From Escherichia coli (GTDB lineage Bacteria; Pseudomonadota; Gammaproteobacteria; Enterobacterales; Enterobacteriaceae): a DNA stretch of 8,395 nucleotides. The stretch lies in NCBI RefSeq assembly GCF_003334815.1, contig NZ_QOWO01000065.1. The stretch is one strand, 5' to 3'. Below are positions 297 through 3,326 of the stretch, piece after piece. The notes below the pieces were generated by a model. That model saw nothing but the letters and a program-made list of their open reading frames with translations, ran no database searches and was not told where the DNA came from. The position numbers and the translations under genes were made by a program. Position 1 is the first letter of the stretch. The number at the start of each line of letters is the position of its first letter.

Positions 297-1538
297 TTAC
301 ATGATGGTTTCTGTAGTAACTATATTTCCATCCTGCCCATTAGATGCTTGAACATTAATGGTGGATAAATTGGTCAAATTACCGCTATTGCTAATTATAA
401 CATTTCCTCCATTCCCGAATTCGCTACCCCCCTTCGCTTCAATAGCTCCCTCAAGAGTAATTTTATCTTTAGCTGATAGCTTGACATTGCCTCCATTACC
501 AGAGGTGACGGAAGATGCAAAAATTGCTGATGTTGGTTTCATATCAAGAGTTGATGTTTTCTTAGAGCCAATGTTCACAACCCCTCCATTACCCTTACCA
601 GATACATCAATGGAACTAAAATCTTCTAGGGCAATGTGCTGACCATTAATATTGACAACCCCGCCATTACCAGTTGGATTGTTTGCAATCAACTGTCCGC
701 TAAGTGAAACTTTTCCAGAATCCCCTCCATTAACTGATATGTTAGGATTGATATCAGAAAAGCCACTAGCTTCAATAATGCCATTATTGTTGATGACGGT
801 ATTCATTAACATATCTTTTCCTAACGCTGTCAAATATACCTGACCGTTAGTTGCACTAATGAAAGAGCTGTTGCTAACAAAAGCATTAGCAACCTCACCA
901 TCGATAGCAATATTCTTGAGACCTGATGAATCTAGCTGTAACACTATTTTTTCCGCACTTGCTAACACGGTCTTACCAGATGGAGTTGTGATCCGACCTG
1001 CGTTCATAACTCTATCGGAAGCAAGAACTACAAAGCCTCCTTTTGAAGTTTTAATGTTGGCCTGGTTAACCACTTGTTTATTCTCATTTGTTCCAGATGA
1101 AAATAACAGCTTATCATTTATAAAATCATTATTGTTGATTTGTTTTGTGGTTGCTACAAGCCCACCGACATTAATGTTGGCGCCACTACGCAGCATAATT
1201 CCATTTGGATTCACCAAAAATACTTTTCCATTGGACGTTAGGTTTCCAACTATATTCGTCAAGGCGGAACCAGTTACTCTATTAAGAGTGACTGAATTTG
1301 AGTCGGGTTGCTTAAATTTAACTGAATATCCTTTTCCTATATTGAATGATGTCCAGTCAATGATGCCTTTCGCTGTGTTTTGTTCAACAAGCATTTCATT
1401 TTTGGTTGGCCTGCTAATGGTTCCATCCCCATTGACAAACTTACCATTGTATGGGATAACAGATGCGTTTACAGAAAAAATTGGTAATGATAAAGCAATT
1501 ATACAAGATAGTGTTTTGATTTTCATAAGATACTCCAT
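297..1538 (-). CDS. Two-partner secretion exoprotein (TpsA): secretion (TPS/haemagglutination-activity) domain protein, unusually short at 413 aa
   Basis: Sec-type signal peptide (MKIKTLSCIIALSLPIFSVNA). N-terminal region carries the TPS-domain hallmarks: WTSFNIGKGYSVKFKQP, LNRVTGSALTNIVGNL and the conserved NPNG motif (GKVFLVNPNGIMLRSGANINVGG). The C-terminal third is Gly/Asn/Ser-rich with four GNGG(V/N)V repeats, typical of beta-helical TpsA shafts. Good Shine-Dalgarno sequences precede both candidate starts (AAGGA before ATG at 1538; GGAG before ATG at 1526). It lies immediately downstream of the tpsB gene on the same strand. Confidence 0.85.
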   Translation of the reverse strand: MEYLMKIKTLSCIIALSLPIFSVNASVIPYNGKFVNGDGTISRPTKNEMLVEQNTAKGIIDWTSFNIGKGYSVKFKQPDSNSVTLNRVTGSALTNIVGNLTSNGKVFLVNPNGIMLRSGANINVGGLVATTKQINNNDFINDKLLFSSGTNENKQVVNQANIKTSKGGFVVLASDRVMNAGRITTPSGKTVLASAEKIVLQLDSSGLKNIAIDGEVANAFVSNSSFISATNGQVYLTALGKDMLMNTVINNNGIIEASGFSDINPNISVNGGDSGKVSLSGQLIANNPTGNGGVVNINGQHIALEDFSSIDVSGKGNGGVVNIGSKKTSTLDMKPTSAIFASSVTSGNGGNVKLSAKDKITLEGAIEAKGGSEFGNGGNVIISNSGNLTNLSTINVQASNGQDGNIVTTETIM

Positions 1539-1592
1539 ATTAATCCTTGTGTTAATAACTTTTTCCGCGTTTTATTTTTATTACCCCTCCTT

Positions 1593-3326
1593 TTAAAAGT
1601 TTTTAGTATAGGAAATCCAAAACTTATTCTTTAACTTGCTCTCGTATTGTGTATTTGAAATTGTAAGTGGTTTAGCCCACTGAATTGAAAGCGTTCCCGT
1701 ATTATCTCTATATATACTGCCACCGATACCTATAGACGATAGCTTTTGCTTGTTTTTAACATCAATCACATTACCACTCTTTATTTTATTATTCCTGTTT
1801 ATATTTCCCGTGGCAAAATCATAAAATATATTCAAATTAGCACTGATTCCATTTCCAATATTTTGAAAGTTTCTGGATAACTCACTTGAGATTACGTTTC
1901 CCGTATCGAGGAAGTGTTTATCTCCACTAAAACCTCGAACACCGTTAACGCCTCCGACAATTAATTTCTGTGTTGCATCAAGATTTCCATTTGCGAACAA
2001 TCCACTGGTTCTAACAGATAATAAATAGTCCTTAACTAAAGGTAAATTATATGCTAATTCATAATTCAGGATTACTTTATGTTTGTCCGTTTCTCTAATA
2101 TCACTACCATTCCAGAAAACAGAAGCTTTATCTTTGTATGACATTTTGCCAAGAGTTGCGCCAAGATTAAAGTATGTGTAGCCATATGAATTAAAATTAA
2201 TGTTAGATTCAAGGTTTATGTAAATATCATTATACTGTTTGCGTCCTTTTTTTCCGGCGAAGGAAAAAAAGGATGAGTAATTGTCAACCATCTCTGAACA
2301 TTCGATGCCTGAAACTATATCAGTATATAAATGATTACTTCTATAAATAGGATATGTGACTCCTAACTCTATACTATTTGCATATCCCTGAAATCTACTA
2401 TCCATATAAAAATACTTATAGTCAAGTCTTGATGCCTTTATCCAAGGTTGCAAGCCATAACTTGTTGGAGTGGCCGTATATTGAACTGCGCCATTACTGA
2501 GTTCCCCTTTGTCGGCAGAACCAGCAACATTGAATGTTAATTTGTCACCGACTTTAAATGGTGAGTATATATATCCACCGATATGGTAACGTTCTTTGCC
2601 AATAGCGTCGTTACCGTAATTATCAAACTGGATATAACCGCCATGGTTAATTATATCTGCTGACTTTATATAGACGGATGATGTCCCTTGAAATTCTCCA
2701 GGATACAATGTGATGTTACCTTCAAATCCAGGTAATTCATTAAGAATGTGTGCTAAGCGATCAAATTCCTTCGTTTTTATTACTTCGCCTTTTTTTAAAT
2801 AGCGTTCAGCTATCTTTATTATATGATTGTTTTGAACACGGGAATTGTTATCTAAAATGATTTTATCAAGTCTTCCTTGATAGACATTAAATTTTACATG
2901 TCCATTATAAAAATCTTGCGGAGGAACAACTACGTTTACTAACATAGCCCCCTCTCTTTTTAAAGCCGCTGTGAGATTTTGACTTAAGTTTTTTATTTCA
3001 TCAAAGCTCACAAGGGTATTTATATAAGGTGCTACTATCTCAGTAAATTTTTCTTTTCTGATTTTAACGCTATTTTCCTTAAAATAAATTAACTCAATGT
3101 TCTTAAGAAGGATTTTTTCATAGTGTTCATTTTTATGTCCCGTCTGGAGCTCGGCTTCATTATATTCACCTTTCGATAAAAAATTATTTTTCTTAATGTT
3201 ATACCTCTCGGATTTATCATTTTGATTGCTTATAATGCCGCTATTTAAAAAAGATAAAGCAGCTTTTGTCTCTGTCGACAGAAACATTAGAAACATTAAA
3301 AATGCTATGTTTTCGTATTTCATCAC
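1593..3326 (-). CDS. Two-partner secretion outer-membrane transporter (TpsB; ShlB/FhaC/HecB family, Omp85 superfamily)
   Basis: 577 aa, a typical TpsB length. N-terminal signal peptide. POTRA-like segment (LVNVVVPPQDFYNGHVKFNVYQGRLDKIIL). Conserved Omp85/TpsB loop-6 motif VRGF (GGVNGVRGFSGDKHF). Beta-barrel-like alternating aromatic pattern and a C-terminal Phe (..WISYTKNF). The annotated start is GTG at 3326; the adjacent ATG at 3323 is the more likely start. The gene is followed 54 bp later by tpsA, giving the B-then-A order seen in shlBA/hpmBA-type operons. Confidence 0.85.
   Translation of the reverse strand: MMKYENIAFLMFLMFLSTETKAALSFLNSGIISNQNDKSERYNIKKNNFLSKGEYNEAELQTGHKNEHYEKILLKNIELIYFKENSVKIRKEKFTEIVAPYINTLVSFDEIKNLSQNLTAALKREGAMLVNVVVPPQDFYNGHVKFNVYQGRLDKIILDNNSRVQNNHIIKIAERYLKKGEVIKTKEFDRLAHILNELPGFEGNITLYPGEFQGTSSVYIKSADIINHGGYIQFDNYGNDAIGKERYHIGGYIYSPFKVGDKLTFNVAGSADKGELSNGAVQYTATPTSYGLQPWIKASRLDYKYFYMDSRFQGYANSIELGVTYPIYRSNHLYTDIVSGIECSEMVDNYSSFFSFAGKKGRKQYNDIYINLESNINFNSYGYTYFNLGATLGKMSYKDKASVFWNGSDIRETDKHKVILNYELAYNLPLVKDYLLSVRTSGLFANGNLDATQKLIVGGVNGVRGFSGDKHFLDTGNVISSELSRNFQNIGNGISANLNIFYDFATGNINRNNKIKSGNVIDVKNKQKLSSIGIGGSIYRDNTGTLSIQWAKPLTISNTQYESKLKNKFWISYTKNF

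Follow-up and report, generated by a model that had tools for sequence, protein, structure and literature searches.

A stretch of 8,395 nucleotides from Escherichia coli (contig NZ_QOWO01000065.1 of assembly GCF_003334815.1; hereafter, the window) carries two adjacent genes on its minus strand, tpsB and tpsA, which encode a putative transporter and an unusually short exoprotein of 409 amino acid residues (aa). By sequence-level criteria, this module is a two-partner secretion (TPS, type Vb) system, and its closest relative is EtpBA. We consider, with a probability of about 0.7, that the two genes form a functional and self-contained type Vb pair in which the exoprotein is reduced to the secretion domain alone. 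A preliminary description of the window had reported a compact tpsB–tpsA pair with an intact TpsB and a truly short TpsA; both open reading frames (ORFs) are present as described (Table 1).

TpsA matches the Pfam TPS profile PF05860 over residues 28–278 (E = 1.5e-29) and TIGR01901 at 79.5 bits against a cut-off of 29.1. The NPNG motif is located at residue 106 in the numbering of the 409-aa form, and the signal peptide is short and classical, with a predicted cleavage site, judged by eye, after SVNA. The canonical TPS domain proposed in the preliminary description is confirmed by the profile searches. The mature protein would consist of approximately 387 residues (39.9 kDa, pI 8.9) with no Cys residue and only six N-X-S/T sequons. 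Four G-N-G-G motifs are found in the C-terminal part at residues 286, 312, 343, and 371.

In a search of solved structures, residues 6–407 of TpsA align with residues 49–456 of EtpA, a protein of 1767 aa, at 43–45% identity (E = 1e-92), and residues 26–398 align with the crystallised EtpA secretion domain (8cpk). The HMW1 adhesin (2odl) and HxuA give E-values of 4.7e-22 and 3.6e-36, respectively. The AlphaFold model of TpsA, calculated with 85 homologues as input, has high confidence scores (pLDDT, 92.3; pTM, 0.90) and is beta-helical from residue ~25 to the C-terminus, forming one continuous right-handed helix with no extra domain. The top match of the model in Foldseek is 8cpk (TM-scores, 0.90/0.96; root-mean-square deviation, 1.4 Å; 45% identity), followed by full-length EtpA, HMW1-PP (2odl), and HxuA (4rm6); 1rwr and 3fy3 were also matched, and the model overlays the cryo-EM structure 8vbb of EtpA. 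TpsA terminates at a point equivalent to ~456 in EtpA, 5–8 aa past the position of the GNWLLDP motif conserved in the long proteins, and the mature protein as a whole overlays the crystallised EtpA fragment of residues 67–447.

Since the whole mature protein superposes on the crystal structure of the EtpA-type secretion (NTS) domain, the Gly/Asn-rich repeats do not form a separate passenger. In the predicted structure, they are the last coils, that is, the second half, of this domain. The C-terminal ~130 aa had previously been taken for a separate repeat region, possibly with a novel fold; the model supports the beta-helix and not the novel fold, and the proposal that no recognisable effector domain is present agrees with it. 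In the alignment, a short classical signal peptide is found in every member of the clade of short forms described below, while all six long relatives have an extended signal peptide region (ESPR). The short forms also have no counterpart of the nine-residue loop GWQGKDSNI of EtpA-like proteins. The residues invariant specifically in the clade amount to 19 scattered substitutions, among which no obvious site was found.

Relatives of TpsA were searched for exhaustively among 1.84 billion cluster representatives. Nearly all the close relatives are ~900–3900 aa long, and residues 7–406 of TpsA match residues ~50–460 of these proteins. A redundant database yielded forms of 409–430 aa from E. coli and metagenomes (87–99% identity), a 408-aa form labelled Klebsiella (60% identity), and a 418-aa form, at 47% identity, from hosts that include Salmonella enterica subsp. 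salamae. All of them share the end of TpsA, the stop position being identical at the 99%, 87–91%, 60%, and 47% identity levels. A neighbour-joining tree built from the domain unites the short forms in a single clade in 200 of 200 bootstraps; its branches are long, and its sister group is an enterobacterial EtpA-like clade. The other short matches in the database (378–620 aa) mostly have frameshift-like or contig-end termini and include no conserved short family. In two alleles (P0003 and P0004), one 28-aa coil between GNGG motifs is lost in frame to give proteins of 381 and 385 aa. At the other extreme of length, the distant relative P0121 (3930 aa) has an unusual array of about ten tandem TPS-like domains, one per ~370 aa, with blastp matches at positions 52, 455, 826, 1191, 1526, 1913, 2397, 2773, 3173, and 3524.

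The ratio of nonsynonymous to synonymous substitutions (dN/dS) is 0.09–0.13 for tpsA at dS of 0.43–0.54, 0.18–0.29 over its last 134 codons, and 0.16–0.19 for tpsB. Both frames stay open even between subclades in which synonymous sites are saturated (dS > 2). A tpsB gene lies directly upstream of tpsA, in the same orientation, in all six loci compared from three subclades, the surroundings of which are otherwise unrelated; the gene is intact (564–588 aa) in five of them and deleted at the 3′ end in locus L007. When the C-terminal parts of eight long relatives were used as tblastn queries, no remnant of a passenger was detected 3′ of the tpsA stop in any locus. These comparisons indicate that the short form of TpsA is an old, selected state, though decay occurs. 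The preliminary description had regarded longer homologues, with this copy ending at a conserved internal position, as the mark of a truncated pseudogene. Such homologues and such an end position are indeed found, but the pseudogene reading fails because the short forms are a monophyletic clade with a conserved stop, a dN/dS of ~0.1, an adjacent TpsB gene, and no downstream relics. The length survey that it called for thus has two sides: the proteins are long outside the clade, and the short form is retained within it.

TpsB matches the Pfam profiles POTRA_2 (1.2e-8) and ShlB (8e-9). It aligns with EtpB from end to end (28% identity, E = 1e-83), whereas the sequence match to CdiB reaches only E = 1e-7. 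The alignment with EtpB retains the N-terminal N(S/A)G..(S/N)Q motif, the GG..VRGF motif of loop 6, FYD..G, and the terminal aromatic residue. In TpsB, VRGF is located at residues 462–465, and the C-terminal residue is Phe, as the preliminary description had pointed out. A signal peptide, MKYENIAFLMFLMFLSTETKA|A, is predicted to be followed by an N-terminal helix of low confidence, two POTRA domains, and a beta-barrel. The AlphaFold model shows POTRA-like and barrel regions with a pLDDT of 79.5; it rests on 11 sequences, and a second, word-index search for relatives yielded almost no more. The folds closest to the model are CdiB (6wim; TM-scores, 0.71/0.76) and FhaC. The family matches, the VRGF motif, and the CdiB/FhaC-like predicted fold are those of Omp85-type transporters, and TpsB is, at the level of sequence and predicted fold, a divergent TpsB transporter of the Omp85 family.

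Several observations weigh against a functional pair. The module was found in only one of 5426 complete E. coli genomes and in none of the PLSDB plasmids. Some copies are decaying: tpsB is truncated to 270 aa in L015 (9122–9934) and has a ~240-bp 3′ deletion in L007 (1–1353), with tpsA open in both. TpsB has no match in NCBIfam, and its signal peptide is weak with a net-neutral n-region. Neither the module nor its surroundings up to 10 kb away gave a Pfam match to an HMW1C-like (etpC) glycosyltransferase in any of the loci, nor is there a third conserved gene, and EtpA needs EtpC for optimal secretion (PMC11463764). In a sigma-70 promoter scan 5′ of tpsB, promoter-like matches were no commoner than in shuffled sequences. 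No AggR/Rns (CfaD) site (WWWWWWWTATC with a −10 element at 21–23 bp) was found 5′ of tpsB in the window, L006, L008, L009, or L002, in a scan that is insensitive, since the known CfaD target etpB was also negative. As neither a promoter nor an AggR/Rns site was recognised, expression of the operon may often be absent, depending on the conditions.

The rarity and the broken tpsB copies are also what would be expected if the module were a non-functional relic, the stump left by an ancient loss of the passenger from an EtpA-like gene, which now hitch-hikes idly with its transporter on virulence plasmids. The length of the relatives outside the clade, the end of TpsA exactly at the boundary between the NTS domain and the passenger, and the location among insertion sequences (ISs) and fragments of type VI secretion genes are in line with such a history. 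It is nonetheless improbable. The clade is deeply diverged as well as monophyletic, both genes are under purifying constraint (dN/dS of ~0.1 for tpsA and <0.2 for tpsB at dS of 0.4–0.5), the frames and the identical stop persist past dS of 2, and the hairpins past the stop are conserved or replaced with no passenger remnant downstream. A role as a helper is, if anything, slightly less probable. TpsB would then mainly serve another, full-length TpsA, or the NTS domain would act in trans as a template or competitor for EtpA-like proteins. Its fold is essentially identical to that of the EtpA NTS domain, the module occurs in strains of the enterotoxigenic E. coli (ETEC) type such as JNE25-005, which has CFA/III cof genes, and its plasmid neighbourhood (repA, yacA, and the IS91 ORF121) equals that of etpBAC in p948. 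Truncated HpmA and ShlA fragments can assist full-length haemolysin; such template-assisted activation by truncated TpsA fragments was reportedly established for HpmA by Weaver et al. in 2009 (cited in PMC5422565). However, recognition between the systems is doubtful at 28% identity between TpsB and EtpB, the pair is always inherited as a two-gene unit, and no long TpsA gene is found in the flanks.

The alternative that deserves somewhat more weight, though still unlikely, concerns the fate of the product: TpsA might be retained at the surface, bound to TpsB or to lipopolysaccharide, as a short adhesin or autoaggregation factor. Colonisation loci lie near the module (dispersin genes in L008 and L009, with aat-like genes in the latter; STb, AraC-type regulator, and fimbrial genes in L002; and a SPATE gene in L012–L019), and the basic mature protein would favour an anionic cell surface. 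On the other hand, TpsA has neither an HMW1-like C-terminal anchor nor a Cys residue, and N-terminal fragments of TpsA proteins, such as Fha30, are generally released. The NTS domain of EtpA has been reported to be sufficient for export (PMC11463764), which also argues against retention.

The action of the self-contained pair can be outlined on the FhaC/FHA and EtpBA paradigm, on which each of the following steps is modelled. Both proteins would be produced from a single AT-rich operon and cross the inner membrane via Sec with their short classical signal peptides. TpsB would form a 16-stranded barrel in the outer membrane, and its two POTRA domains, on the periplasmic side, would bind the unfolded TPS region of TpsA. 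The exoprotein would then be threaded out through the barrel, fold outside into a ~40-kDa right-handed beta-helix matching the EtpA NTS domain, and be released from the cell. Release appears most likely because the protein ends with the helix and has no lectin repeats, anchor, or toxin after it. By analogy with EtpA, secretion of TpsA via TpsB is expected, and TpsA is most likely released as an NTS domain alone, with a function in binding but not as a lectin. In EtpA, the NTS domain is sufficient for export and flagella binding, and the C-terminal repeats provide binding to blood group A (PMC11463764). That the NTS helix of TpsA has a binding role, with flagella as the partner as in EtpA, can be proposed only tentatively. 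The idea that the EtpA-type TPS/NTS domain has an activity of its own and was freed by evolution as a standalone secreted effector is a little more doubtful. Such an effector might be a soluble binder of flagellar tips or flagellin without host-glycan bridging, which could mask flagellin or modulate motility or adhesion; an immunodominant decoy is another possibility.

Table 1. Positions of the module and its neighbours in the 8,395-nt window
Feature	Position	Strand	Basis and remarks
tpsB	1593..3323 (576 aa) or GTG start 3326 (577 aa)	minus	ORF; Pfam POTRA_2 + ShlB
tpsA	297..1526 (409 aa) or in-frame ATG 1538 (413 aa)	minus	ORF; Pfam TPS; TIGR01901
tpsB–tpsA intergenic spacer	1527..1592 (66 nt)	minus	sequence
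Hairpin 3′ of tpsA	228..252	minus	folding energy; probable transcript end or stabiliser
Presumed promoter region 5′ of tpsB	3324..3632	minus	25% GC
Whole module (3.56 kb)	77..3632	minus	34% GC; segment shared in blastn
IS3-family element end	1..76	minus	sequence; RefSeq IS3 family transposase in pJNE25-005_2
Type VI secretion sheath remnant	3586..4415	minus	
tssB	4415..3939 (158 aa)	minus	intact; TIGR03358, 163 bits
Direct repeats of 182 bp (two copies)	4712..4893 and 5433..5614		93% identical
88-aa ORF (WP_032342288.1)	4933..5199	minus	signal peptide; two Cys; no family match
IS91 element with ORF121 and transposase gene	5920..7370	plus	
yacA–yacB	7687..8234	minus	RelB/RelE-ParE type; intact; IncFII backbone

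The alternative start codons in Table 1 should be read together with the RefSeq annotation of the 99.6% identical copy on plasmid pJNE25-005_2, in which the inner starts are chosen to give proteins of 409 aa (MKIKTL...) and 576 aa (MKYEN...); this choice is consistent with the homologues. RefSeq names the products 'POTRA domain-containing protein' (tpsB) and 'two-partner secretion domain-containing protein' (tpsA). The copy in L008 (98% identical) has exactly positions 76..3632 of the window in common and nothing else in blastn, and the shared segments in the more distant copies are 200..3506 (L006, 86%) and 217..3437 (L009, 84%). Because the common segments end there, the module is regarded as a unit of ~3.5 kb. 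No terminal inverted repeats were found on it, and an Rfam scan of the window detected no RNA family. The end of the IS3-family element lies 220 bp downstream of the tpsA stop and leaves the gene untouched, and L008 has the identical module end without IS3; truncation by this element, which the preliminary description had already doubted, was therefore rejected. The G + C (GC) content is 38% in tpsA, 33% in tpsB, 25% in the 5′ region, and 34% in the module as a whole, compared with 52% in the IS91–yacAB backbone. All the subclades of the short form have values of 33–40%, against 57% for etpBA. The AT-rich, foreign-looking composition noted earlier is thus evident, and silencing of the module by H-NS is plausible from this composition.

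A Shine–Dalgarno-like sequence, AAGGAGGGG, is located at 1592–1584, immediately 3′ of the tpsB stop. The likely ribosome-binding sites of tpsA are AGGA before the ATG at 1538 and GGAG before the ATG at 1526. The AGGAGG motif is observed 0–8 nt past the tpsB stop and 50–70 nt before the tpsA start in all three subclades of the short form (at the equivalent places in L002, L004, L006, and L009). It is not present in the etpB–etpA spacer, and no conserved small ORF was found after it. Ribosome retention, translational coupling, and chance are all possible explanations.

The hairpin 3′ of tpsA, 45 nt past the stop, has an 11-bp stem and a 3-nt loop with a folding energy of −29.4 kcal/mol (z = −5.2). 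Within the E. coli group (L006, L007, and L009) it is conserved, and the changes in its stem are compensatory. L002 and L004 have other hairpins at the corresponding site, so that every subclade has a hairpin past the stop. The clean stop and the hairpin of the preliminary description were found. The hairpin has a weak U-tract and went undetected in the terminator scan.

The window as a whole is 99.93% identical to a contig of a draft E. coli assembly (GCA_002547865.1, L016), and ~82% of it is 99.6% identical to pJNE25-005_2, a conjugative IncFII plasmid of a Japanese human isolate, strain JNE25-005, which also has the genes of the ETEC CFA/III (cof) pilus. Draft assemblies contain the exact TpsA protein in 65 indexed blocks, and K. 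pneumoniae has close variants of it. In plasmids of the window type, the gene order is repA, yacAB, IS91, the 88-aa ORF, tssB, the tssC fragment, tpsB, tpsA, IS3, a phytase-like gene, and PhoX, and a 1370-aa serine protease autotransporter (SPATE) gene lies further on, past PhoX (L012–L019). Other copies have different company. Dispersin (Aap/CexE-like) genes are found near the module in L008 (199–549 and 6237–7005) and in L009, in which dispersin is accompanied by a cluster that resembles the aat transporter as far as the Pfam matches can be read (15136–21050). In L002, the neighbours are an STb enterotoxin gene (2838–3041), AraC-type regulators, and chaperone-usher fimbrial operons. These surroundings suggest a recurrent link of the module with AraC-family (AggR/Rns) virulence regulons, for which the motif scan gave no confirmation; etpBAC is activated by CfaD (PMC5554520).

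The other elements of the window are described here as neighbours. The remnant of a type VI secretion sheath consists of the intact tssB and the first ~104 codons of tssC, which is cut at ~3632, the start of the TPS module. In pJNE25-005_2 this stretch is rearranged, with ~295 bp in place of positions 3860–4353 of the window. The type VI genes were rejected as a part of the system, since neither tssB nor the tssC fragment is found around the module in L002, L004, L008, and L009. The two direct repeats flank the 88-aa ORF, and each holds the 35-nt palindrome GCGCCCGCAATGACGGGGCAAGTCATTGCGGGGGC; a 78-bp piece of the repeat is also present in L004 and L005. Compared with pJNE25-005_2, the IS91 transposase gene of the window has 62 bp missing near the 3′ end. 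The same ORF121 sits just 5′ of etpB in plasmid p948 of ETEC H10407 (L010, 8135–8500), so that etpBAC and the present module occupy equivalent neighbourhoods: repA, yacA(B), the IS91 ORF121, and then tpsB. A fragment annotated as a 3′–5′ exonuclease adjoins the yacA–yacB toxin–antitoxin pair.

In large TpsA proteins, the TPS domain is usually regarded as a tag for export and a nucleus for folding. In the conserved clade of short forms, the TPS/NTS domain makes up the entire product, which implies that it can be the functional unit. The pair (~40 kDa and 63 kDa) offers a natural minimal substrate and transporter with which the mechanism and structure of type Vb secretion could be studied. The module travels on plasmids of diarrhoeagenic E. 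coli beside dispersin/aat, STb, fimbrial, or SPATE genes, and its identity of 43–45% to the NTS domain of EtpA, an ETEC vaccine candidate, could matter for colonisation or serological cross-reactivity. That TpsA is a distinct and complete protein is hidden by the pipeline label 'filamentous hemagglutinin N-terminal domain-containing protein' and by the name 'EtpA' in one UniRef entry. Neither this module nor any natural exoprotein consisting of the TPS domain only was found to be described in a search of the open-access literature, which gives no proof of absence. An activity of the free NTS domain, if demonstrated, would raise the interest of the module, which would then represent the first naturally occurring 'TPS-domain-only' class among type Vb substrates.

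Among known systems, EtpBAC is the nearest. Besides the alignment of TpsA with EtpA 49–456, the overlay of its model on 8cpk and the cryo-EM structure 8vbb, and the end-to-end alignment of the transporters, the two systems share the gene order of B then A and a place on IncFII-type plasmids beside the IS91 ORF121. The differences are also clear. TpsA has 409 aa, whereas EtpA is a 170-kDa protein (PMC11463764). The ESPR, the GWQGKDSNI loop, and the C-terminal repeat modules of EtpA, which form the blood-group-A lectin, are missing from TpsA, the transporters are only 28% identical, and the GC contents are 34% for the module and 57% for etpBA. Judged from the sequences, the module thus fails three features of EtpBAC/HMW1-type systems: the passenger repeats, the glycosyltransferase, and the ESPR. 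The mature TpsA of 39.9 kDa is also below the usual size of TpsA proteins, 100–650 kDa, a range that is typical and not strictly defining; the review that gives it calls the 96-kDa HxuA 'relatively small' (PMC5422565).

HxuA of Haemophilus influenzae belongs to the same TPS subfamily, as the sequence and Foldseek (4rm6) matches indicate; it is a beta-helical binding protein that is released and has neither repeats nor a toxin. It differs from the present TpsA in having a functional helix of ~600 aa after the TPS domain. Laboratory-made TPS fragments (EtpA 67–447, HMW1-PP, Fha30, and HpmA265) have the domain content of TpsA, the secretion-domain beta-helix alone, and are stable. EtpA 67–447 is a very stable and rapidly refolding beta-helix, and in the model of full-length EtpA the N-terminal domain is followed by an interdomain kink (PMC10284417). 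These fragments are engineered cuts of large proteins, whereas the short TpsA is a natural full-length product with its own stop and hairpin, a dedicated transporter, and conservation as a clade.

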